DNA of 24,000 bases. Source: Thermoplasma acidophilum DSM 1728 (lineage in GTDB: Archaea > Thermoplasmatota > Thermoplasmata > Thermoplasmatales > Thermoplasmataceae). Both the position numbers and the translations under genes were made by a program. Each line of letters begins with the position of its first letter. The stretch's first letter is position 1. The notes below the pieces were generated by a model. That model was not told the origin of the DNA and searched no databases. It saw nothing but the letters and a program-made list of their open reading frames with translations. The stretch covers positions 963,644-987,643 of the forward strand of contig NC_002578.1 of the NCBI RefSeq assembly GCF_000195915.1, in the 5' to 3' direction. Of this stretch, positions 1 to 22,685 are shown piece after piece.

Positions 1-273
<273 letters not shown>

Positions 274-306
274 TCAGGGGATCGCAGCGACCATCATTCG
301 TCGATT

Positions 307-1941
307 TTATTTTTGATCCGGCGAAGCCATGAGTATTATTCCCGTATTTCCATCGATGTATATGCGCTCGCCTTCCTTTATCTGACGAACCAATCTTGCC
401 TTGGTTACAACCGTTTTTCCCTTTAAAGAAGACATAAGAGATGGCTTGATATCAGATGTGAATATGAATGCCCTGAAATCAGTTCCAGGAATTCTTCCAT
501 CCTCAGACATGAGTATGTCTCCCTTCGTACCGTAAGTTGCCGTACCGGATAAGCTATCTCCAAATGAATAGCCTCTTCCTATGAATTTGCCTACAACGGC
601 CACCTTGACGTCGTTCGTCCCTCCAAACGTGAAGTACGGATCGCCGCTGGTCATCACGAGCTTACTTCCATCAGCGAACCTACCAGAACGCACTATGTAT
701 TCCATAATCTCTGAAAAACTAAGATCTTCTGCGTTGCCCTCCATATGCAATGGCAATACGCCGAAGTATATGTTCAGCTTTCTGGCAAGACTCTCGCTTA
801 CAGTGGCAGCGTAGACCATGGCCTTTGGCCTCAGCGACGATATCATCCTAACGGTTGATCCAGTATGCGTAAGTGCCACTATCCCATCGCTCTTGATATC
901 ATCAGAGAGTATCTTCGCTGCCCTTGCTACTGAGTATGCTATGGTGTTTCCCTTAAAGTAATATGAAGAATCGAACGACACCTTGTCCTCCACGTAATCC
1001 GAAACCTCCTTGAGCGTACGGACGGCCTGAACCGGATACTTTCCTATCGCACTCTCCTCGGAGAGCATTAAGGCATCTGCATTGTCTATGATCGCATTTG
1101 TAATGTCTGAAATCTCTGCCCTTGTGGGTGAACTGTTGTTTACCATGGATTCCAGCACCTGGGTCGCTACGATAGTGAAATCGCCATCCTCATGCGCTGT
1201 CTTTATTATGTGCTTCTGAGCCAGCACGACCTCTTTCAAGGGAAGTTCCACACCGAGATCGCCACGCGCCACCATGATGCCATCGGATGACTTCACTATC
1301 TCCTCTATGTTATCCAGGCCGCTCTTCGTCTCTATCTTCGATATTATGTACTGATCGCCACCGCTGTCTATAACGAAGTCGCGCAGGCTGTCAACGTTCT
1401 CAGATTTCTGCACAAATGAAAGGGCGAAGAAGTCCACGCCATCCGCTATGCCCTCCCTTATGAAGGCACGATCCCTGTCCGTTATGGTTCCGAGCTCTAT
1501 GAAACGGCCGGGGATATTCACACGGCTCCTGTCCCTTAGAACGCCATCGTTTAGAGCCCGGATTGTGAACGGATCTGTTGATTCAACCTCGAATGATACT
1601 TCACCATCGCTCATCAGTATCCTGTCGCCAACCTGAACAGCCGAAAGCACGTTCATGTTGTTCAGGACTATGTCTTTGCCCATGACGTAGTCCTTACCGG
1701 ATGATATTTTCAATGTACCACCCGCGAATTCGCCCGTTCTGAGCTCTGGGCCCTTCAGGTCTATCATTATACCAACGTCCCTGTTGATAGAACGAACCAT
1801 CTGCGTTATCTTCGATACATCCTTTATATCTGCATGTGCAGAATTTATTCTTACCAGCGAAAGACCGTTGTCTATCATCTGTTTCATTATCTCGGGCGAA
1901 CTGCTAGCCGGGCCTATTGTCGCAACTATCTTGGTCTTCAT
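307..1941 (-). CDS. pyk: Pyruvate kinase with a C-terminal PEP-utilizer-like extension (about 544 aa)
   Basis: N-terminus MKTKIVATIGPAS, then MIDLKGPELR and MVARGDLGVE, are canonical pyruvate kinase motifs. The ORF track starts at a GTG at 1947. I prefer the ATG at 1941 because GGAGGTG (reverse complement of 1949..1955) lies 7 nt upstream of it. About 90 extra C-terminal residues lie beyond the normal PK C domain. Confidence 0.93.
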   Translation of the reverse strand: MKTKIVATIGPASSSPEIMKQMIDNGLSLVRINSAHADIKDVSKITQMVRSINRDVGIMIDLKGPELRTGEFAGGTLKISSGKDYVMGKDIVLNNMNVLSAVQVGDRILMSDGEVSFEVESTDPFTIRALNDGVLRDRSRVNIPGRFIELGTITDRDRAFIREGIADGVDFFALSFVQKSENVDSLRDFVIDSGGDQYIISKIETKSGLDNIEEIVKSSDGIMVARGDLGVELPLKEVVLAQKHIIKTAHEDGDFTIVATQVLESMVNNSSPTRAEISDITNAIIDNADALMLSEESAIGKYPVQAVRTLKEVSDYVEDKVSFDSSYYFKGNTIAYSVARAAKILSDDIKSDGIVALTHTGSTVRMISSLRPKAMVYAATVSESLARKLNIYFGVLPLHMEGNAEDLSFSEIMEYIVRSGRFADGSKLVMTSGDPYFTFGGTNDVKVAVVGKFIGRGYSFGDSLSGTATYGTKGDILMSEDGRIPGTDFRAFIFTSDIKPSLMSSLKGKTVVTKARLVRQIKEGERIYIDGNTGIILMASPDQK

Positions 1942-2331
1942 GAGCACACACCTCCAAGCAGCTTGGGATCATTTGAATGGACTATTATGATCGATCGCCT
2001 TTCATTTACATGAGCGTGAATTCTTTCAATGAAACCTACTTTTAGACATTTTTGTGAAGAATATGCACCGTAATCAGCATAAGATTTACTTGATCCATTG
2101 GATCGATTGTAAACGAACGATCCATGAAATCCGCGAGTCAAAATTTTCCACATCATTATTGGTTATGTAAACATCACAATAAATCCTTTTGATCCGATTT
2201 CACTTCTAGCAAAACATGCACCAGGATGCTGCTCAGGGACATCGTTTCCTTCATCCGTGCAATATGCGGGCATCATATCGAAGGCCAACATTGCGTCCAA
2301 TAAACGGTTCTCGAAATGCGCAACACATTAG

Positions 2332-2345
2332 AAATTAATTAATAG
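2332..2345 (+). promoter_or_regulatory. TATA-box-like element for gdh (AAATTAATTAATAG); leaderless or near-leaderless transcript
   Basis: The AT-only 14-mer is centred about 28 nt upstream of the ATG at 2366, and there is no Shine-Dalgarno sequence in between. Its core TTAATTAA is palindromic. Confidence 0.45.
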
Positions 2346-2365
2346 AATCTAGCATTCCCGCACTT

Positions 2366-3451
2366 ATGACTGAACAGAAAGCCATTGTGACAGATGCGCC
2401 CAAAGGTGGCGTGAAATACACAACAATAGACATGCCTGAACCGGAACATTACGACGCCAAGCTTTCACCTGTATACATAGGAATATGCGGAACGGATCGT
2501 GGAGAGGTGGCTGGTGCCCTGTCATTCACGTACAATCCAGAGGGGGAGAATTTTCTTGTTCTCGGGCACGAGGCGCTTCTGCGTGTTGACGATGCCCGTG
2601 ATAATGGCTACATAAAGAAGGGCGATCTTGTAGTACCCCTCGTGAGAAGGCCTGGAAAATGCATCAACTGCAGAATAGGCAGGCAGGATAACTGTTCCAT
2701 AGGTGATCCGGACAAACATGAGGCTGGAATAACTGGGCTTCATGGTTTCATGCGCGATGTCATATACGACGATATAGAGTATCTCGTTAAGGTTGAAGAT
2801 CCAGAACTGGGAAGGATCGCAGTGCTTACGGAGCCTCTGAAAAATGTCATGAAGGCTTTTGAGGTCTTCGACGTTGTGTCAAAAAGATCCATATTCTTCG
2901 GGGACGATTCCACGCTCATAGGTAAGAGGATGGTCATAATAGGCAGCGGGAGCGAGGCTTTCCTCTACTCGTTTGCAGGCGTAGATCGCGGTTTCGACGT
3001 CACAATGGTGAACAGGCACGATGAGACGGAAAACAAGCTGAAGATCATGGACGAGTTCGGCGTCAAGTTCGCAAACTACCTTAAGGACATGCCGGAAAAG
3101 ATAGATCTCCTGGTTGACACCAGTGGTGATCCAACGACGACATTCAAGTTCCTCAGGAAGGTAAACAACAACGGCGTCGTCATATTGTTCGGCACGAACG
3201 GCAAGGCGCCCGGCTATCCAGTGGATGGCGAGGACATAGATTACATCGTGGAGAGGAACATAACAATAGCCGGATCGGTTGATGCCGCGAAGATACACTA
3301 CGTGCAGGCCCTTCAGTCCCTCAGCAACTGGAACAGAAGACACCCAGATGCCATGAAGAGCATCATAACATACGAGGCGAAGCCGTCCGAAACCAACATA
3401 TTCTTCCAGAAACCACACGGAGAGATAAAGACGGTGATAAAGTGGCAGTGA
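2366..3451 (+). CDS. gdh: Glucose 1-dehydrogenase, zinc-dependent medium-chain dehydrogenase/reductase family (non-phosphorylative Entner-Doudoroff pathway)
   Basis: The 361-aa ORF starts [48 protein letters not shown] recognise this as the Thermoplasma acidophilum glucose dehydrogenase sequence. It carries the MDR zinc-ligand region GICGTD...GHE and the nucleotide-binding loop IIGSGSEA. Confidence 0.95.
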
Positions 3452-4278
3452 AGATCCTCAGGGGAGAGGAGATCGCCGAAAAGAAAGCCGAAAACCTGCA
3501 TGGGATAATTGAAAGATCCGGGCTCGAACCATCGCTGAAACTTATACAGATTGGAGATAATGAGGCTGCCTCAATATATGCCAGGGCAAAGATCAGAAGG
3601 GGAAAGAAGATCGGTATAGCCGTGGACCTGGAAAAGTATGATGACATTTCGATGAAAGACCTTCTGAAGAGGATAGACGATCTAGCGAAGGATCCACAGA
3701 TAAATGGAATCATGATAGAAAATCCGCTGCCAAAGGGCTTTGATTATTATGAGATAGTCAGGAATATTCCCTACTATAAGGACGTGGATGCGCTCTCCCC
3801 ATACAACCAGGGACTCATAGCCCTTAACCGTGAATTCCTCGTGCCTGCAACACCCCGTGCCGTGATAGATATCATGGATTACTATGGATATCATGAAAAT
3901 ACGGTGACCATAGTGAATAGATCTCCCGTTGTTGGCCGGCCACTGTCGATGATGCTTCTCAACAGGAATTACACAGTATCGGTATGCCACAGCAAAACAA
4001 AGGATATAGGCTCGATGACAAGATCTTCGAAGATCGTGGTTGTGGCCGTGGGAAGGCCTGGATTTCTCAATAGGGAAATGGTTACACCAGGGTCCGTTGT
4101 CATAGATGTCGGCATAAACTACGTAAACGACAAGGTGGTTGGGGATGCAAATTTTGAGGATCTTTCAGAATATGTAGAGGCCATAACCCCTGTGCCGGGA
4201 GGGGTTGGCCCGATAACGGCAACAAACATACTCGAAAACGTTGTGAAGGCGGCAGAATTCCAAAAAAACAACCTGTAA
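3442..4278 (+). CDS. folD: Bifunctional methylenetetrahydrofolate dehydrogenase / methenyltetrahydrofolate cyclohydrolase
   Basis: The 278-aa ORF has the C-terminal [11 protein letters not shown] motif and [11 protein letters not shown]...CHSKT typical of FolD. It uses a GTG start at 3442 and overlaps the gdh stop (3449..3451) by 10 nt. Confidence 0.9.
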
Positions 4279-4493
4279 ATTTTTAAATTCCATTACCGAT
4301 CCATTTACAATATCAGAAAATTAGGAGCGTATGCCCGGTTACCTCTCTTCAACTTACTTTTGCGATGAATCGTTTCCATAGAAATTGTACAATTGAATGA
4401 TCATGGATCGACGCTGGTGATGCGGCATTTCGGAAAAGAAGCAATCTTTGGAATACGCTTATGCGAATGAAATTCCAGCAGATGACAACGAAG

Positions 4494-4508
4494 TTTTATA
4501 ATTAATTT
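4494..4508 (+). promoter_or_regulatory. TATA-box-like element for nadE (TTTTATAATTAATTT)
   Basis: The AT-only element is centred about 25 nt upstream of the ATG at 4526, with no SD sequence. Confidence 0.45.
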
Positions 4509-4525
4509 GCAATACGTTTATCCGT

Positions 4526-5251
4526 ATGCCGGATTATATGCAAGAAATTGAAAGAATTTCGGAATTCCTCAGAAAGGTTCTTCAGGGGAAAAATGCCGTC
4601 ATCGGCATCAGCGGCGGAATTGACAGTTCCGTCACACTTGCGCTTTTAACAAGATCAATACCGAAGGAGAGAATAATCCCGGTTTTCATGCCGGATCGGA
4701 ACACACAGCAGGCAGACTATGACGATGTGCAGAAGCTCACACAGAAACTTGGGCTTACGTACAGAGAAGTGCGGATAGATCCCATGGTCGATTCATTCGT
4801 TAGCACATTGGCTGCTACCGATCGTGCCGCAATAGGAAACATAAAATCCAGAACAAGAATGATCATACTCTACTATTTTGCAAACACCAACGGCGGCATG
4901 GTCGTTGGGACAACAAACAGAACGGAGCTGCTTCTTGGCTACTTCACCAAATACGGTGACGGAGGATGCGATGTCGAACCAATTGAGCATCTCTACAAGC
5001 GGGACGTCTACGAACTCGCGAAGATACTCGATATTCCTGAATCCATAATGAAGAAGAAGCCCACCGCTGGACTGTGGGCAGGGCAGACGGATGAAGACGA
5101 GATAGGCATGTCATATGCGCAAATGGATGAAATACTGAGCGATGTATTCGATAAGGGAACATACAATGATAAGCCGGAGTATAAGAAAATAATGGAAATG
5201 CACAGCCTTTCCGATCATAAAAGGAACCTTCCTTACTCACTGAAAAAATGA
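4526..5251 (+). CDS. nadE: NH3-dependent NAD+ synthetase
   Basis: The 241-aa ORF has the PP-loop SGGIDSSV, followed by GTTNRTELLLGYFTKYGDGGCD and KKPTAGLW, all characteristic of NadE. Confidence 0.92.
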   Translation: MPDYMQEIERISEFLRKVLQGKNAVIGISGGIDSSVTLALLTRSIPKERIIPVFMPDRNTQQADYDDVQKLTQKLGLTYREVRIDPMVDSFVSTLAATDRAAIGNIKSRTRMIILYYFANTNGGMVVGTTNRTELLLGYFTKYGDGGCDVEPIEHLYKRDVYELAKILDIPESIMKKKPTAGLWAGQTDEDEIGMSYAQMDEILSDVFDKGTYNDKPEYKKIMEMHSLSDHKRNLPYSLKK

Positions 5252-5257
5252 TCTCAG

Positions 5258-6556
5258 ATGACGGCCATCTTTCCATTTGGATATTATCTGGACGTGAGCC
5301 TCATTCTCGTTCTCGGGGCCATAGCTCTGCCCATATCCAGGAAGATGTCCGTCGTTGAGATACCGATACTGGTCTTTCTAGGCATAATAATAGGGCCGAT
5401 GCTTCACCTGATTAGCCCTAATTTTTCCGTCTACCTCTTCTCCTCATTCGCCGGCGTAGGCATAGGAATGATGGGGCTTGTGATCATACTGTACAGCGAA
5501 AGCCACAACATGAATCTTAAGGTGCTCAGAAGCGAGTTCTACCGCATAGCCTCGCTGGACACTTTGGGCGTTATAATAACTGCAGTCGTTGCTGGGCTTG
5601 TCTTCACCGTACTGACTGGAGCCCCAATAATAGTGGGCTTCCTCTTCGGTGCCATAGTGTCGCCAACCGATCCGGTCACTCTGATACCACTGTTCAGGCG
5701 CGTAAAGGTGAGCGAGGACATATCGGAGATACTTGTAGGCGAAAGCCTCTTCAACGACCCGGTTGGCATAATACTAGTATCGGTAGGCATTGCGCTTCTG
5801 GCCCCGCAATCCTCTTATGTTTCACTGTTTTCGGCCATGAATAGAGTGATAACATTCTATCCGTCGATCGTCGCGTACTTTCTGATTCAAGTGGCTGTTC
5901 CATCCATAGTTGGAATAGCAATAGGGTTCAGCGTCATATACTTGGACAAGAAGATAAAGTTCGAAAATTACTTGACGGCCATGCTCCTCGGCCTGGTAAT
6001 ATTTGAATTCACAGTGTTCGAAAGCCTGTCGATAACGCCTTTTCCGGCCATAATAGCGACCGGCGCAATTGTCGGCAATTTTTCGGACAAGAACATATTC
6101 TGGTCAAGGGAACAGAATTTTCAGGAAAGCCTTTCATTCCTCAGCGCGGCAATCATCTTCATACTCATAGGATCTTCTTTCACACTTTCAGAAATAGTTT
6201 CCTACATTCTCCTCGGGATTGCGCTGACCATCCTGATCGTTTTTCTGGTCAGGCCGCTTGCCGTATTCCCAAGCCTCATGATAGCCGATGCCAGGAAACC
6301 GAAGATGAAGTCGTATTACAAGATTGCGGCATTCATATCCCTAGTCGGCCCCAGAGGGGTTGTGCCAGTCGTTCTCTCAACCCTTCCATACGTGGTCGGC
6401 GAGGAATACAACATCCCTGTTCTTGTCACATGGGGCCCGCTTATAAGCGTATCTGCGCTCTTCGTGGTACTGTTCTCAATAGTTCTACAGACGCTTTACA
6501 CACCCATAATAAGAAACATTTTCCTGCCTGATTCAGGAAATGGCTCCGAGAAATAG
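5258..6556 (+). CDS. Na+/H+ (monovalent cation/proton) antiporter, CPA1 / NhaP type
   Basis: The 432-aa polytopic membrane protein has more than 10 hydrophobic segments. It contains GAIVSPTDPV and GESLFNDP motifs typical of CPA1 exchangers. It starts 6 nt after the nadE stop, so it is likely co-transcribed. Confidence 0.85.
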   Translation: MTAIFPFGYYLDVSLILVLGAIALPISRKMSVVEIPILVFLGIIIGPMLHLISPNFSVYLFSSFAGVGIGMMGLVIILYSESHNMNLKVLRSEFYRIASLDTLGVIITAVVAGLVFTVLTGAPIIVGFLFGAIVSPTDPVTLIPLFRRVKVSEDISEILVGESLFNDPVGIILVSVGIALLAPQSSYVSLFSAMNRVITFYPSIVAYFLIQVAVPSIVGIAIGFSVIYLDKKIKFENYLTAMLLGLVIFEFTVFESLSITPFPAIIATGAIVGNFSDKNIFWSREQNFQESLSFLSAAIIFILIGSSFTLSEIVSYILLGIALTILIVFLVRPLAVFPSLMIADARKPKMKSYYKIAAFISLVGPRGVVPVVLSTLPYVVGEEYNIPVLVTWGPLISVSALFVVLFSIVLQTLYTPIIRNIFLPDSGNGSEK

Positions 6557-6588
6557 TCCGATCGTGTGCGAAAACTCTTGTCAATCGC

Positions 6589-6602
6589 ATAAAGTTTAAA
6601 AT
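6589..6602 (+). promoter_or_regulatory. TATA-box-like element (ATAAAGTTTAAAAT) for the four-gene type IV filament-like operon
   Basis: The element is centred about 29 nt upstream of the GTG start at 6625, with no SD sequence. It is the only AT-rich box in the 68-nt spacer after the antiporter gene. Confidence 0.4.
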
Positions 6603-6624
6603 CAGCCGCACGGGATTTCATTTC

Positions 6625-7875
6625 GTGCAGGCCCAGTATCGCACTCAGGAAGGTGTACATTATGATATAGAATCCAGCGGCTACATGCGCGTGACCGAGC
6701 CGGAGATGGATCAGAACCTGAGAGATGCGATCAGGATGGTTATAAATGAGCTTACATCGTCCTCTGGAGAGGTTTCGCAGTGGACTCTCCGTGAGATAAC
6801 GGCCCGATACAGGAATCTCTACAGGATAAAGGATCCATTTGTTCTTGATTACTATATAAATAGGTATATGTCTGGCCTGAGGAGTGTTTATCCACTTTAT
6901 ATAAACGATGCCATTGAAAGAATAATGTCGAATGGCTATGACAGACCAGTGATCGTGCAGTACAACGGGAAGTATTACGAAACCAATATAACGCTCAAGC
7001 GTGAGGATCTTGATTCAATAGCCATAAGGGTGTCGCAGATGATGGGGAAAAAGATATCGAGCGGCAGCCCCATAGCTTATGGTAACCTTCAGAACTTCAG
7101 ATCGATTGTGACCTTCGGCGATGACGTAACGCCCTTCGGTTCCTCCTTGTACCTTGAGCGGAGGCATGTTGTTGCCGATCCAGAGGCCATGTCAAGCATG
7201 AAGGATCCGATGGTCTCTGCATACCTGATCATGGCTCTGGAAAATATGAGATCGATCATGATCATAGGCCCGGATAGCCCTATGAAAATAGCGATAATAT
7301 ACCATCTCATACGCATGATTGGATCTGAAAAAAAGATAGCGTACATCGGTGAAAACGGCAGGTTCGACTTTCCAAGAAACATAGTTTACATGATGCCCAG
7401 AGAAAGGACAGTTTTCAGCAGCGAGATCAGCCGCACAGATCTCATAAACACTGCACTGAGGCAGAGGCCGGATTTCATCGTCGTCAACGGGCTGACAGCC
7501 AGAGAGTTGCCCGCTGCGGTGCAGGCAATAACCACTGGCCATCCTACATTATCTTCCATGGATATCGATAGCATAGAGAATTTCTCATCCCTGTTCTCGG
7601 ATCCATCCACAGGGCTTTCGAAGGACATGATCAGCCTTTTCGACGTGGTTATTGAAATAGCGGATAACGGGGAATACGTTAAGGCGATATACGAGTATGA
7701 CAGGCTTGAGGGGCAAGAGGTGCTGTACAATGTACCCTTCTCCGCTGACAGGAAAAGGAAGCTCGTTTTCAGTGGATATAGCGGCATATTCCGAAGAATG
7801 TCGAAGGTCATAGGAGAGGATAGCTTCAGGCAGGCACTGGAGAACAGGATGAAGGAACTTGATGGGGGTGCCTGA
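6625..7875 (+). CDS. FlaI/TadA/VirB11-superfamily (T2SSE) secretion-ATPase paralog with degenerate catalytic motifs
   Basis: The 416-aa ORF is collinear by eye with the ATPase at 9456..10694 from the N-terminal domain through the P-loop region. Walker A reads GPDSPMKI (7267..7290) instead of GxxxxGKT. The Walker B / catalytic Glu region reads YIGENGRF versus VLVEDTHEL. The GEIRG box is replaced by NGLTA. The His box TTVH is replaced by SSMD. The start is a GTG at 6625. Confidence 0.7.
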   Translation: MQAQYRTQEGVHYDIESSGYMRVTEPEMDQNLRDAIRMVINELTSSSGEVSQWTLREITARYRNLYRIKDPFVLDYYINRYMSGLRSVYPLYINDAIERIMSNGYDRPVIVQYNGKYYETNITLKREDLDSIAIRVSQMMGKKISSGSPIAYGNLQNFRSIVTFGDDVTPFGSSLYLERRHVVADPEAMSSMKDPMVSAYLIMALENMRSIMIIGPDSPMKIAIIYHLIRMIGSEKKIAYIGENGRFDFPRNIVYMMPRERTVFSSEISRTDLINTALRQRPDFIVVNGLTARELPAAVQAITTGHPTLSSMDIDSIENFSSLFSDPSTGLSKDMISLFDVVIEIADNGEYVKAIYEYDRLEGQEVLYNVPFSADRKRKLVFSGYSGIFRRMSKVIGEDSFRQALENRMKELDGGA

Positions 7876-8722
7876 TCATATGATCAAATCGGCCAATATC
7901 AAGACGGCTGTAGATAGCAGCGTATCCAGGATAATACCGAGATCCACCGTGAAGAAATATGAGGATCTCATGGTCAGGGCCAGAATGAATGCTGGAGCCC
8001 TGACCTATCTCATATCAGCTTACGAATACGCAATCTCCGGCGCGGTGATCGTCATCCTGGCCGGTGTGCTTTCATACGTATTTGCGCATTCAATATGGAT
8101 AATAATTTTGTCCATATCGTTTCTAATATATGCCGTTGCCCTGTACTACCTCTTCACGCTGCCCGAGATAAGGGTGAAATCCATCAAATCAAATATAGAA
8201 CATGTGATGCCAGATGCACTTGCCGTTGCCTATGGCCTGTCGCTTTCAGGCGTGCCTGCAGACACCATGATCAGCGAGCTGGCCGGCATAAAGGAGCTTG
8301 GCGAATTCGCGAAGGAATCCCAGAGAGTGAATTCCTTTATGTACGCAATGGGCTATGATTTCCTCAGCGCTCTTGAACGCAGCGAGAAGGTCAGCGCTTC
8401 TCCGGATTTCTCTAGATTCGTGGCCGGCATAAGATTATCGATAATACTGAACTCAGATCTGACGGCTTTTCTCAGAGACAGACTTGATTACTACGTGAGA
8501 GTTCAGGAAAATAAGTCGAAGTTGTCGCTGGATTCCCTGGGCCTGGCAGCAGAAAGCTATGTTGCGGTGGCCATTGCGTTTCCCATATTGCTCTATCTCA
8601 CCGGATCCATAATATCCATAAAGAACAGCTCCGTTCTGTTCTTCGTTCTTTCTATGATGGTTCTTGTGGTATCGGCTGCGGTTATGGGCTACTTTACAGA
8701 AAGGATAAGGAGGGAAGTATGA
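7862..8722 (+). CDS. Type IV filament platform protein, single T2SSF domain (FlaJ/TadB/EpdJ-like half)
   Basis: The roughly 286-aa ORF has two N-proximal TM helices and a soluble helical domain (MPDALAVAYGLSLSGVPADTMISELAG...GYDFLSALE), followed by C-terminal TM helices. This is the T2SSF architecture. Candidate starts are TTG 7859, ATG 7862 and ATG 7880. The first two overlap the upstream stop at 7873..7875. Confidence 0.65.
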   Translation: MGVPDHMIKSANIKTAVDSSVSRIIPRSTVKKYEDLMVRARMNAGALTYLISAYEYAISGAVIVILAGVLSYVFAHSIWIIILSISFLIYAVALYYLFTLPEIRVKSIKSNIEHVMPDALAVAYGLSLSGVPADTMISELAGIKELGEFAKESQRVNSFMYAMGYDFLSALERSEKVSASPDFSRFVAGIRLSIILNSDLTAFLRDRLDYYVRVQENKSKLSLDSLGLAAESYVAVAIAFPILLYLTGSIISIKNSSVLFFVLSMMVLVVSAAVMGYFTERIRREV

Positions 8723-9459
8723 ACAGAGGCATATATTCAGCGTTGATCGCCATGGTAGGACTCATAATCGGTGGTGTTTTTAAGAACTTCGTCCTTATAG
8801 GCATATTCTTAGTTTCCGCGGTTCTGGTATTCATAGGATCTGGATACACGGAGAAGGCGAAGACAGCCGAGATCAAGAACCTGCAGGTACCATCGCTGGT
8901 CAGGGATCTGTCAGGTTACTCCAGTTATGGCCTTTCCCTCTATTCGGTGCTTCGCATGATAAAAAACGAAGATCTCGGCCCGATAAAGGAAGAGGTTGAC
9001 AAGGCCATGGCCATGATGAAGAACGGCAATACGATAGAGGAGGTTTCTCAGTACCTGCAGAAGAATTCTTCACCGGACCTGGCGCTTGTGTCGGCTGTGC
9101 TCAAGAACGCTGACAACACCGGAAGGGCAGGTGAAACACTGCAGTTCCTGTCCACGTACATGAATGAGAGATCGACAAATCACAAGAACGTTACGCAGAC
9201 ATCAGAAAATTACGTGGGCCTTGTAATAGGCTCATTCCTCATATTCGTTCTGGTCATGGTTGTGGTGGATTTCTATTTCCTGAAGTCAAACGGACATGCA
9301 ATGGTGCTGCTCTCCTCGGTGATCATGATGGTTCAGTCCTATGTGACTGGCTTCTACCTGGGCCTGGTCAGATACGACAGCCTGATATCCGGAACGTTCT
9401 ATGCAGGCATTCTGAGTCTCATTACAGGTTTTCTCCTTGTGGTGGCGGGTTCGCTATGA
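8719..9459 (+). CDS. Type IV filament platform protein, single T2SSF domain (FlaJ/TadC/EpdK-like half)
   Basis: The 246-aa ORF has two N-terminal TM helices, a soluble domain (VPSLVRDLSGYSSYGLSLYSVLRMI...GNTIEEVSQYL...ADNTGRAGETLQFL) and C-terminal TM helices. It shares ATGA stop/start overlaps with both neighbours. Confidence 0.65.
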   Translation: MNRGIYSALIAMVGLIIGGVFKNFVLIGIFLVSAVLVFIGSGYTEKAKTAEIKNLQVPSLVRDLSGYSSYGLSLYSVLRMIKNEDLGPIKEEVDKAMAMMKNGNTIEEVSQYLQKNSSPDLALVSAVLKNADNTGRAGETLQFLSTYMNERSTNHKNVTQTSENYVGLVIGSFLIFVLVMVVVDFYFLKSNGHAMVLLSSVIMMVQSYVTGFYLGLVRYDSLISGTFYAGILSLITGFLLVVAGSL

Positions 9460-10694
9460 ACATCTACGAAGTTAGCGGAAAATACCCCGACGATGTGGCC
9501 ATAATGGGCCTTCGGTATCTAAGCAGTGCGCACGAGATTTCGCTTGATGAGTTTGCTGCCCAGAACGGCATAGACGCGATCACGAAGAACCAGATCGAAA
9601 AATTCGCAGATGATTATGTGAACAGAATGGGCAAGATACAGCCCCTGATAGATGATCCGGACATAGAGGATATAACGGTTCTGCCTGAAAACTACGTATA
9701 CATCTATCACAGATCCATGGGCAGCATGCGCACTAACATCTTCTTCACGGAGTATGAAGCCGGAAGATTCGCTAGGCATCTGGCACAGAGATCCGGCAAG
9801 ACACTCTCCGTCTACAACCCCATCGTGGACATTTCGCAGGGAAACCTGAGGATAAACATCGTTCATCATGATGTATCCAGGCCCACGATATCGATAAGGA
9901 AGCTCAGGTCGAATCCATTCAACCCTGTGAACCTCATCGGCAATGGAACAGCATCAGCGGATGTCATGGCCTATCTCTGGGAAGCCATACAGGCAAGGCT
10001 CAACATACTGATAACGGGATCAACGGCCAGCGGGAAAACAACACTTTTGAACGCGATTGCGATGTTTATTGATCCGCTTCTCAACGTTGTACTGGTGGAG
10101 GATACCCATGAACTTTCACTGCCGGGAAAGAACATATTTTACATGCAGCCCAGGCCAGGTGTCAGCGGCCTCTCCATCCGGGATCTTTTGGATGTAATAA
10201 CCTACAGGAATCCTGATTATCTCATCGCCGGTGAGATAAGGGGACCAGATATAGATGCATTCTTCAACTACCTCGCGTCCGGCAGAAAGGGTATGACCAC
10301 GGTACATTCAGGTGGTCCGGCCAGCCTGATGAGAAGGCTCAGATCTCCGCCAAACTCCATTCCAGATTCAAGCCTCATGAACGTGGACATCATCGTTGAG
10401 ATGAGAAACGATATGAAGCGTTATATTGGTAAGGTCTCAGAGGTTCGCATGGATGACGGCCTTCTTCTGAACAACGTCTATGAATACAATGACGGAGCGT
10501 ACGAGATGTCTGGCATAAGCTATATCGTAAAAAAGATCGCGGATATTAGAGGAATTCCAGAAGCTTACATAGAGGATAGGATAAGAAAGAAACGGGATTT
10601 TCTTGCAAATCTGAACTCTACGATGGGATCGGAAGAGTTCCTTCTGTCTGTATCGAGATTCTCTGCAGACGAAGGTGAAGGGCAGGAAAGCTGA
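9456..10694 (+). CDS. FlaI/TadA/VirB11-superfamily (T2SSE) secretion ATPase with intact catalytic motifs
   Basis: The 412-aa ORF has Walker A GSTASGKT (10017..10040), Walker B / Asp box VVLVEDTHEL, GEIRGPD and a His box MTTVHSG. The N-terminal domain motif DDPDIEDITV is typical of the family. Confidence 0.88.
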   Translation: MNIYEVSGKYPDDVAIMGLRYLSSAHEISLDEFAAQNGIDAITKNQIEKFADDYVNRMGKIQPLIDDPDIEDITVLPENYVYIYHRSMGSMRTNIFFTEYEAGRFARHLAQRSGKTLSVYNPIVDISQGNLRINIVHHDVSRPTISIRKLRSNPFNPVNLIGNGTASADVMAYLWEAIQARLNILITGSTASGKTTLLNAIAMFIDPLLNVVLVEDTHELSLPGKNIFYMQPRPGVSGLSIRDLLDVITYRNPDYLIAGEIRGPDIDAFFNYLASGRKGMTTVHSGGPASLMRRLRSPPNSIPDSSLMNVDIIVEMRNDMKRYIGKVSEVRMDDGLLLNNVYEYNDGAYEMSGISYIVKKIADIRGIPEAYIEDRIRKKRDFLANLNSTMGSEEFLLSVSRFSADEGEGQES

Positions 10695-16266: not shown

Positions 16267-16301
16267 GATCGCTTTTTACATCCTCAAAAATGTTTACCAA
16301 A

Positions 16302-16314
16302 GTATTTTAAATGA
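16302..16314 (+). promoter_or_regulatory. TATA-box-like element for the MscS gene (GTATTTTAAATGA)
   Basis: The element is centred about 24 nt upstream of the GTG start at 16332. It is divergent from the polB promoter within a 97-nt spacer. Confidence 0.4.
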
Positions 16315-16331
16315 TAGAATAATGTGAAACC

Positions 16332-17225
16332 GTGGACAGAGGGAAGGCAAGATCCATTGCAGTTTATGTGATAATACTTGGAGCCGTTATGGTGGCACTG
16401 CTTGCGCTGCTCTACGTGATAAGCCTGTTTCACATAGTTCCACTGAAATTCTCTCACGTACTTTATGCAATAGTCATAGGTGTGATAATTTATGCTATTG
16501 TCAAGGTAGTGGTGAAGTATTTTGAGAGATTCTTCGCCGCTCATAAGGAATACAGGCATCTGAAATATGTGACGTTCATAATAAGCCTTGTTGGGTATTT
16601 CATAATAGCCCTTGCCGTCCTGGCTTCCCTGGGTATAGATGTTTCTTCTGTTATACTTGGATCGGCATTTATAAGTGCAGTGATAGGCCTCGCTGCACAG
16701 ACAGTCCTTTCCAATATCTTTGGTGGCCTTTTCATCTCTGTTGTGAGGCCATTCAACGTTGGCGATCATGTTATAATAAACACATGGCAATACGGTGCGT
16801 CCTTGCCATCTTATCCTCCGAAATATTTTTCAAGGGACTTCATGGAAGCCTCCATGTACAGGGGCATAATATTCGACATCTCAATGAATTACACCACCAT
16901 CGTGCTTGAATCTGGGGATACGGTGAAGATACCCAATGGCATAATGGTGCAGGCGGCCATAACTATAAGAAAGGGCATGGTAACCGTTCAGGCGAGATAT
17001 GAGGTTCCAAAAAGCGTACCATTCGAGAACGTTGCAGAAAAGCTGAAGCAGGAGATCCTCTCGGATCATGACGCAAAGAATCTCTCTGTATTCATCGATG
17101 AAAGCACGCTGAACACTTACATAATGCTCATCAGAGGGGATTTTCCAGGTGAAGATGCCGATTTGATCAGGAGCTCAATTATAAAGAAGGCCATGGAGAT
17201 CGTAGAACCTATGAAGGCCCACTGA
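16332..17225 (+). CDS. Small-conductance mechanosensitive channel (MscS family)
   Basis: The 297-aa ORF has three N-terminal TM helices followed by GLAAQTVLSNIFGGLFISVVRPFNVGDHV, the pore helix / beta-domain signature of MscS. It uses a GTG start. Confidence 0.85.
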   Translation: MDRGKARSIAVYVIILGAVMVALLALLYVISLFHIVPLKFSHVLYAIVIGVIIYAIVKVVVKYFERFFAAHKEYRHLKYVTFIISLVGYFIIALAVLASLGIDVSSVILGSAFISAVIGLAAQTVLSNIFGGLFISVVRPFNVGDHVIINTWQYGASLPSYPPKYFSRDFMEASMYRGIIFDISMNYTTIVLESGDTVKIPNGIMVQAAITIRKGMVTVQARYEVPKSVPFENVAEKLKQEILSDHDAKNLSVFIDESTLNTYIMLIRGDFPGEDADLIRSSIIKKAMEIVEPMKAH

Positions 17226-22600: not shown

Positions 22601-22685
22601 TGCGAGGGGCGGGATTTGAACCCGCGAACCCCTTCGGGACAGGATCTTAAGTCCTGCACTGTTGGCCTGGCTTAGTTACCCTCGC
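22601..22685 (-). tRNA. tRNA-Leu (anticodon UAA), class II with long variable arm, no intron, no encoded CCA
   Basis: The minus strand reads GCGAGGG-TA-ACT-AAGCCAGGCCAAC-AGT-G-CAGGA-CTTAAGA-TCCTG-TCCCGAAGGGGTTC-GCGGG-TTCAAAT-CCCGC-CCCTCGC-A. It has a 7-bp acceptor stem, 5-bp anticodon and T stems, a TTCAAAT T-loop and TAA at anticodon positions 34-36. Confidence 0.92.

Follow-up and report, generated by a model that had tools for sequence, protein, structure and literature searches.

A secretion ATPase homologue with degenerate catalytic motifs in a two-ATPase operon of Thermoplasma acidophilum

A 24,000-nt stretch of the Thermoplasma acidophilum DSM 1728 genome (contig NC_002578.1, positions 963,644 to 987,643; termed the window below) contains a compact operon in which two genes for secretion ATPase homologues enclose the two halves of a split platform protein (Table 1). 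The product of the first gene, designated E1*, is full length and has lost its catalytic signatures, whereas the second ATPase, E2, keeps an intact Walker A motif, Asp box and Walker B motif. Analysis of the motifs, fold, selection and relatives of E1* makes it likely that this protein is a pseudo-ATPase with a structural or coupling function that involves no catalysis, and that E2 is the only motor of the machine.

Table 1. Genes of the two-ATPase operon and catalytic motif regions of E1* in the window.
Feature	Position	Strand	Remarks
E1* (416-aa FlaI/GspE-type secretion ATPase homologue, catalytically degenerate)	6625..7875	+	GTG start
Fa (first half of split platform protein, one T2SSF domain, about 280-287 aa)	7880..8722	+	Pfam T2SSF E=9e-11
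Fb (second half of split platform protein, 246 aa, one T2SSF domain)	8719..9459	+	Pfam T2SSF E=2e-11
E2 (412-aa ATPase; Walker A, Asp box, Walker B intact)	9456..10694	+	T2SSE E=7.5e-21, FlaI model E=6e-53
E1* Walker A, degenerate: GPDSPMKIA	7267..7293	+	family GxxxxGKTT; afGspE GETASGKTT; E2 GSTASGKTT
E1* Asp box, degenerate: IGENGR	7345..7362	+	family IE[DE]TRE; afGspE IEDTRE; E2 VEDTHE
E1* Walker B region, degenerate: RQRPDFIVVNGLTARE	7459..7506	+	E2 GEIRG core; afGspE VGEVRG
E1* His box, half-degenerate: TTGHPTLSSMD	7531..7563	+	afGspE TGHASYSTLHA

The genes of the operon are separated by ATGA overlaps or 4-nt gaps, and the ATGA overlaps that join Fb to both of its neighbours can be read directly from the sequence. 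Three candidate start codons exist for Fa (TTG 7859, ATG 7862 and ATG 7880). In the corresponding frame of the related locus L001 (related loci and proteins carry L and P numbers throughout), a start codon is present only at the equivalent of ATG 7880 and none is found at the equivalents of 7859 or 7862; in locus L002 the E1* stop and the Fa start share an ATGA. The true start of Fa is probably ATG 7880, 4 nt past the E1* stop, and the overlap of Fa and E1* annotated in the window genome is doubtful because only this codon has a start equivalent in L001. An initial annotation of the window, which had placed the start of the next gene at 7859 or 7862 and thereby over the E1* stop, was right about the tight packing but not about the probable start. 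Housekeeping genes for pyruvate kinase, glucose dehydrogenase, FolD, NadE and a Na/H exchanger form the upstream flank of the operon, and genes for a GTPase, a radical-SAM protein and PolB follow downstream. The closest named relatives belong to Thermoplasma spp., proteins of the E1* type bear the plain NCBI name 'type II/IV secretion system ATPase subunit', and a literature search for the locus tags Ta0900-Ta0904 returned nothing.

The register of the catalytic motifs was fixed in two ways, by matching a profile of five E1* orthologs to afGspE (PDB 2OAP, E=9e-40) and by a MAFFT alignment of 30 sequences; the same profile matches FlaI at about 1e-18. These independent alignments return the register proposed in the initial annotation, including a Walker A equivalent GPDSPMKI at 7267..7290 that has lost its second Gly and its Thr. 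Both Thr residues of the family pattern are in fact gone together with the second Gly, and the Lys (Lys221) is kept; the orthologs read GPETPMKIS, GPHTELKYS and GGGCPNKQR at this place, and the E2 Walker A lies at 10017-10043. In the Asp box, a Glu occupies the position of the Asp and both Glu positions are lost, which extends the earlier claim that the second Glu of an ExxxE region is missing, since the loss is not limited to that residue. The Walker B region retains RQRPD, while the GE-R-G core of the aligned family is changed to NG-T-A (VVNGLTA), with Gly in place of the catalytic Glu and Thr in place of the Arg, and the proposed loss of the GEIR box is thereby confirmed. Of the two His residues in the His box, E1* retains the first but has Asp in place of the second (Asn in L003), so that the reported exchange of His for Asp holds for the second His.

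The His box of E2 reads GR....TVH and has an Arg where E1* keeps the first His. In a comparison of the E2 orthologs from L001, L002, L004, L006, L008, L011, L012 and T. volcanium, this Arg of the E2 His box (about 10278-10320; G-R....T.H) was found in nearly all sampled Thermoplasmatales downstream ATPases, the exception being the E2 of L003, which has an Ile (GGIPSMSTVH). The upstream E1-type ATPases, degenerate E1* included, keep TGH, resulting in a near clade-wide contrast with the E2 type.

At ten of the changed positions of E1* (220, 222, 223, 242, 246, 288, 289, 291, 292 and 313), at least 90% of the sequences in an alignment of 68 superfamily members carry G, T, T, E, E, G, E, R, G and H, respectively; the E1* residues there are M, I, A, G, R, N, G, T, A and D. 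A regular-expression search of the whole protein detected no second GxxxxGK[ST] and hence no intact P-loop elsewhere in E1*. Among 277 homologues obtained in two large searches, a canonical Walker A is missing in only eight, all of which belong to the E1* clade, and the motif loss is therefore regarded as real and beyond chance. No E1* ortholog has the catalytic Glu or either Glu of the Asp box, and the residues that replace the catalytic ones differ among T. acidophilum, T. volcanium and L003. Such lineage-specific substitutions suggest that the catalytic positions drift freely and that constraint acts on the remainder of the sequence. With no P-loop Gly and Thr, a Pro and an Asp or Glu in the loop and no catalytic Glu, a canonical catalytic site has to be judged impossible in E1* on the basis of its sequence, and the protein is not expected to hydrolyze ATP.

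E1* matches the NCBIfam FlaI model over residues 24-340 (E=3.6e-27) with a score of 95 bits against a cutoff of 550, and its Pfam T2SSE (PF00437) score of 22.4 bits is under the gathering threshold of 24.9. An AlphaFold2 model computed from the 68-sequence alignment has a mean pLDDT of 87.4. Foldseek comparison of this model returned afGspE (E=1.4e-31, TM 0.79), FlaI chains (TM 0.77-0.83) and also CpaF, with both domains superposed. In the model, E1* keeps the predicted two-domain fold, consisting of an N-terminal PAS-like domain (N2D) and a RecA-like C-terminal domain (CTD). E1* is accordingly a structural member of the PilT/VirB11-like superfamily (FlaI/GspE/TadA branch) that lacks the catalytic hallmarks. 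Its best sequence and structure matches, afGspE (2OAP) and FlaI/ArlI (4IHQ, 4II7), cover both domains in full length; these proteins are, however, active homohexameric ATPases with all motifs, and there are no archaellum genes near E1*. An identity of E1* as the archaellum FlaI was ruled out by the 95-bit score and the housekeeping neighbours.

Full-length E1* is encoded in five DNA loci (the window, L001, L002, L003 and L009), and the protein identity to window E1* is 93% for L009, 81% for L001, 72% for L002 and ~31% for L003. The T. volcanium protein P0004, for which the protein sequence only was used, is likewise full length and aligns end to end at 41% identity. Ratios of nonsynonymous to synonymous substitution rates (dN/dS) all derive from the single unsaturated pair of window and L009 (dS about 0.45), in which they amount to 0.079-0.082 for E1* and 0.078-0.081 for E2, compared to 0.061 for Fa, 0.080 for Fb and 0.052 for the Na/H exchanger. 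By domain, the ratio for E1* is 0.093 in the N-terminal and 0.073 in the C-terminal part, and the motif zone has a value of 0.066. Synonymous sites are saturated in the comparisons with L001 and L002 (dS >1.6 or undefined), which leaves the pairs with L009 and L010 as the informative ones, and the pairs of loci with active E1, L004/L005 and L006/L007, are too alike for a comparison dN/dS. Judged by these ratios, E1* is under strong purifying selection like the active motor E2 and the rest of the operon.

A 15-nt element resembling a B recognition element (BRE)/TATA box, ATAAAGTTTAAAATC, is located at 6589..6603 (+) and precedes the GTG start by about 22-36 nt. Both the element and the GTG start are unchanged in four Thermoplasma loci despite the synonymous saturation relative to L001 and L002. 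The element is probably the promoter of the operon and, at a distance of about 25 nt from the start, would give rise to a leaderless or short-leader mRNA. Scans for bacterial sigma-70 promoters and terminators were uninformative, as the host is an archaeon.

These data bear on the question of whether E1* could be a decaying pseudogene that has yet to acquire a stop codon. The loss of all catalytic signatures and the T2SSE score of 22.4 bits below the threshold of 24.9 would fit such a state, but the dN/dS of about 0.08 equals that of the functional neighbours, the reading frame is full length in each of the five DNA loci, as is T. volcanium P0004, with protein identities falling to 31-42%, the promoter-like element is invariant and the fold model is confident. 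Frameshifts and relaxed selection were not seen in the orthologs. The pseudogene hypothesis, whose probability we consider close to negligible, was rejected on the strength of the dN/dS values and the intact orthologs, in agreement with the initial annotation, which had already doubted it.

Purifying selection on the motif zone is, on the other hand, one of the arguments for a nucleotide-dependent enzyme or sensor, in which case E1* would bind, and perhaps slowly hydrolyze, ATP or another ligand and act as an ArlH/FlaH-like switch for the motor. Several conserved residues point in the same direction, namely Arg159 and Arg179 of the N-domain, Lys221, the RQRPD Asp and the first His of the His box. 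Such a role is nevertheless improbable, as the P-loop contains Pro, Asp or Glu and has neither the Gly before the Lys nor the Mg-binding Thr, as its sequence varies by lineage, which argues against a conserved ligand pocket, and as all orthologs are devoid of the catalytic Glu and of the two Asp-box glutamates. ArlH/FlaH itself, also summarised in PMC12448462, is a KaiC/RecA-like, non-motor or poorly hydrolyzing P-loop partner of hexameric ArlI in the archaellum. Unlike E1*, it comes from an unrelated fold family (RecA/KaiC), has a functional Walker A, binds ATP and is no paralog of the motor.

The initial annotation had described E1* as a paralog of the downstream ATPase and the core region of the two as collinear. 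BLASTP recovers the homology between the open reading frame (ORF) at 6625-7875 and E2 in one collinear alignment (E=2e-8, 21% identity over 325 residues); with an overall identity of 18-21%, however, the two proteins are ancient and not close paralogues. An HMMER search of 1.84 billion representatives with an E1* profile returned Thermoplasma proteins at 834 and 686 bits, P0005 at 245 bits and the pool of archaeal ATPases at 165 bits or less. P0005 is the upstream ATPase of L003 and is degenerate too (GGGCPNKQR, ISESQG, IDSLSE, TGH...MN). It is encoded in the same E-Fa-Fb-E operon, which in L003 lies beside genes for the Na/H exchanger, NadE, FolD and glucose dehydrogenase. A scan of the genome collection with the E1* profile yielded only two matching loci, both of them Thermoplasma loci of metagenome-assembled genome (MAG) origin. 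Many of the archaeal ATPases nearest to the E1 type are proteins of 600-1,600 aa with a C-terminal ATPase module and large uncharacterised N-terminal extensions; one example is P0006, in which GVPGVGKT is found at residue 589 of 840 aa.

A machinery operon with two ATPases, CdiPE1 and CdiPE2, and a split platform, CdiPFa and CdiPFb, was described in 2025 for the CdiP pilus of Cuniculiplasma divulgatum (ISME J; PMC12448462). In its passages on the operon, this paper states that having two ATPases is 'unique' when compared with other pilus and archaellum operons of archaea and that it is 'enigmatic' why a second one is needed (PMC12448462); the word 'Walker' is absent from its main text, and its ATPase passages contain no statement on inactivation. 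The published names CdiPE1 and CdiPE2 were matched to gene order by assumption. With the CdiPFa sequence from the supplement of PMC12448462, related loci were retrieved from Cuniculiplasma-like genomes (L004/L005), Caldiplasma sukawensis (L006/L007) and a Thermoplasmataceae MAG (L008), together with L011 and L012. The best CdiPFa match is 88% identical, so that L004 is closely related to C. divulgatum but need not come from the strain itself. Loci L004-L008, L011 and L012 have the same four-gene operon by the Na/H exchanger and NadE genes, and those that reach far enough also include FolD and glucose dehydrogenase.

The window shares with the CdiP operon the order ATPase-Fa-Fb-ATPase, the Na/H exchanger/NadE/FolD/glucose dehydrogenase neighbours and a homologous Fa, the window protein being 26% identical to published CdiPFa (E=2e-14). 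By gene order, synteny and platform homology, the window operon is a CdiP-type Thermoplasmatales system with one apparently dead ATPase. It differs from its CdiP-type relatives in the degenerate upstream ATPase, in the length of its proteins, all four of which are shorter, and in being inverted relative to its neighbours. Both ATPases of the Cuniculiplasma-like, Caldiplasma and three other Thermoplasmatales loci are motif-complete and 30-130 aa longer than the Thermoplasma proteins. The motifs of the upstream ATPase are complete in five lineages (L004/L005, L006/L007, L008, L011 and L012), with a Walker A of GVPGVGKT, GAPGSGKT, GPPAVGKT or GPPASGKT and with IE[ED][TS]RE, GE[IV]RG and TGH....T[IVM]H as the remaining motifs. 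A platform made from two single-T2SSF-domain genes is also known from Epd/Tad-type systems (EpdJ/K, TadB/C; 'System 1'), for which, in contrast to the window, the relevant sections of the source describe one ATPase homolog and mention no second or inactive ATPase (bioRxiv 10.64898/2026.04.22.720090).

In a neighbour-joining (NJ) tree, the E1* clade groups with the active upstream ATPases at 88% bootstrap, and L003 is sister to Thermoplasma in the trees of the Na/H exchanger and of Fb (100% each). Synteny, gene order and tree together place E1* as the inactivated ortholog of the ATPase that is encoded first, at the CdiPE1 position, in the Thermoplasmatales E-Fa-Fb-E operon. The NJ tree and the identity of 18-21% rule out that E1* is a recent duplicate of E2. 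Most parsimoniously, the two-ATPase operon would predate the split of the sampled Thermoplasmatales lineages. As the upstream ATPase is intact in five other lineages, the most parsimonious history would also include a single inactivation of E1, on the stem of Thermoplasma and the L003 lineage, that is, in their common ancestor.

Other features of the operon vary among these loci as well. The operon proteins are shorter in Thermoplasma and L003 than in the other Thermoplasmatales, with 412-425 versus 465-540 aa for E1, 405-419 versus 434-531 aa for E2, about 280-288 versus 289-324 aa for Fa and 246 versus 246-284 aa for Fb. A deletion of 5-6 residues at the same hairpin of the C-terminal domain is common to E1* and E2 of Thermoplasma and L003. 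Together, these differences suggest that the whole machine was remodelled in a co-ordinated way in this lineage. In Thermoplasma (window 2366-10694, L001, L002), the operon follows the glucose dehydrogenase/FolD/NadE/Na/H exchanger block in the same direction, whereas in L003, L004, L006, L008, L011 and L012 it is convergent with that block and E2 abuts the Na/H exchanger gene, which indicates that either the operon or the housekeeping block was inverted in place in the genus Thermoplasma. Directly upstream of the operon, L012 contains genes for a tyrosine integrase (Phage_integrase), a zinc-ribbon protein and a KwaA-family member as well as several small ORFs without annotation (1-4898), and this region has the appearance of a mobile or defence element that has become integrated. 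The Cuniculiplasma-like operon is preceded by two Ta1207-family genes (PF19020) in tandem (L004 1965-3923) and the Caldiplasma operon by a run of small unannotated ORFs of 50-204 aa (L006 243-4342); pilins or accessory proteins could be among their products. Nothing comparable to these L004 and L006 ORFs adjoins the Thermoplasma operon.

In this history, E1 lost the Gly and Thr of the P-loop, the Glu pair of the Asp box, the Glu and Arg of Walker B and the second His of the His box and retained its predicted two-domain fold after this loss. In the mechanism proposed here, E2 would be the sole ATP-hydrolyzing motor, and E1* would be made alongside it in fixed proportion from the tightly packed operon. 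Most probably, E1* would build a ring or oligomer of its own, docked to the platform halves and/or to E2, and would serve to couple or position E2. We infer this physical partnership with E2 and the platform, as well as the ring architecture, by analogy; a separate E1* oligomer is favoured because of the precedent of PilT and PilU and because both ATPases appear to be self-sufficient enzymes in the sister lineages. In Vibrio and Acinetobacter, PilT mutants in Walker A or Walker B still permit PilU-powered retraction whereas a pilT deletion does not, PilT and PilU are separate, interacting homohexamers, and a natural PilT variant renders PilU essential (PMC6821130, PMC6762196). The likeness to the window consists in two PilT/VirB11-superfamily ATPases per machine and in an inactive copy that is, or in the case of E1* would be, still required as the partner of the active one. 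The comparison has its limits in that inactive PilT is known from laboratory point mutants or one natural variant and not from an ancient, fixed loss of four motifs, and in that PilT and PilU are close bacterial paralogues dedicated to retraction, related to E1* and E2 at the superfamily level.

Non-catalytic subunits are also found within mixed rings, as in the A3B3 heads of F1/V1, and E1* could in the same manner contribute non-catalytic subunits to one hetero-hexamer with E2, as the initial annotation had contemplated. The E1* and E2 genes are presumably co-transcribed and are tightly coupled, both proteins lie on long branches in the same lineage, and both have lost N-terminal residues besides the 5-6 residues at the same hairpin, which suggests co-adaptation to a shared environment. 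E1* and E2 are, however, no more than 18-21% identical, and the complete motifs of both ATPases in the sister lineages suggest two self-sufficient homohexamers as the ancestral state. To our knowledge, every characterised member of the family is a homohexamer, which counts against a mixed ring as well. PilT and PilU form separate rings (PMC6821130), and alternation of E1* and E2 would disrupt the C2-symmetric catalytic cycle that PMC6858323 proposes for the family. A mixed ring is thus considered unlikely.

Competition for one docking site is a further way in which two such ATPases could be combined, comparable to PilB and PilT, which take turns at the base of type IVa pilus (T4aP) machines in bacteria, but with one motor dead. 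E1* would in this case act as a brake or placeholder that vies with E2 for docking to the platform and thereby idles machines or locks pili. The retained fold, and presumably the docking surfaces with it, would allow for this, and the two active motors of the ancestral operon are compatible with antagonistic roles in extension and retraction. Equimolar co-translation of a constitutive inhibitor from its own operon would be an odd design, though, and C. divulgatum, in which both motors are active, showed neither twitching nor retraction (PMC12448462), so that antagonism is not established even for the ancestral state. A competitive role of E1* is therefore given little credence here.

Several observations weigh against a non-catalytic partner role for E1* in a pilus machine or call for a careful reading of the data that support it. 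ATP binding by E1* is conceivable, as Lys221 of the P-loop, the Asp of RQRPD and the first His of the His box are retained, and the dN/dS values come from one pair of loci. E2 proteins group at 50% bootstrap only in the NJ tree, the branches of E1* and E2 are long, and the orthology of E1* rests chiefly on synteny because long-branch effects are possible. A crude class-III signal-peptide pattern found no pilin-like ORFs within the window, and a pilus as the product of the operon in Thermoplasma is assumed from orthology. In C. divulgatum, the passages on pilins place their genes ~500 kb away from the machinery operon (PMC12448462).

An anciently fixed, naturally inactivated PilT/VirB11 secretion ATPase of archaeal or bacterial type IV filament systems was not found described in the literature searched, and the portions of two surveys of archaeal systems that were consulted do not mention an inactive secretion-ATPase paralog. 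The operon represents a natural experiment, in that the upstream ATPase lost all motifs in one lineage and was yet kept under purifying selection down to about 31% identity. Its retention without catalytic motifs implies that the role of the upstream ATPase in Thermoplasma and the L003 lineage would require no ATP hydrolysis. This observation overturns nothing and makes the published puzzle of the second ATPase testable, the proposition being that its role can be ATP-independent. As a non-catalytic partner, E1* would moreover offer a parallel from nature to the laboratory finding that ATPase-dead PilT enables PilU.

More speculatively, and with considerable doubt on our side, an obligate pair of a dead and a live motor may have become fixed in the Thermoplasma type IV filament machine, either as a mixed E1*/E2 ring or as an ATP-independent adaptor ring. 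A mixed ring would be without precedent in the PilT/VirB11 superfamily as a heteromeric assembly, and its two kinds of subunit would correspond to the catalytic and non-catalytic ones of F1/V1. An adaptor ring would be permanently ATP-independent, with E2 driving the split platform through E1*. Either form would make the 'enigmatic' second ATPase of CdiP-type pili essential in a non-catalytic role.

Two minor features of the window lie apart from the operon. A 168-aa ORF without a family match (16284-16790, minus strand) is almost wholly antisense to an MscS-like channel gene (MS_channel_2nd; 16332-17225, plus strand) and is probably spurious. ARAGORN and Rfam found a single RNA gene in the window, which encodes a tRNA-Leu with the anticodon UAA (22601-22685, minus strand).

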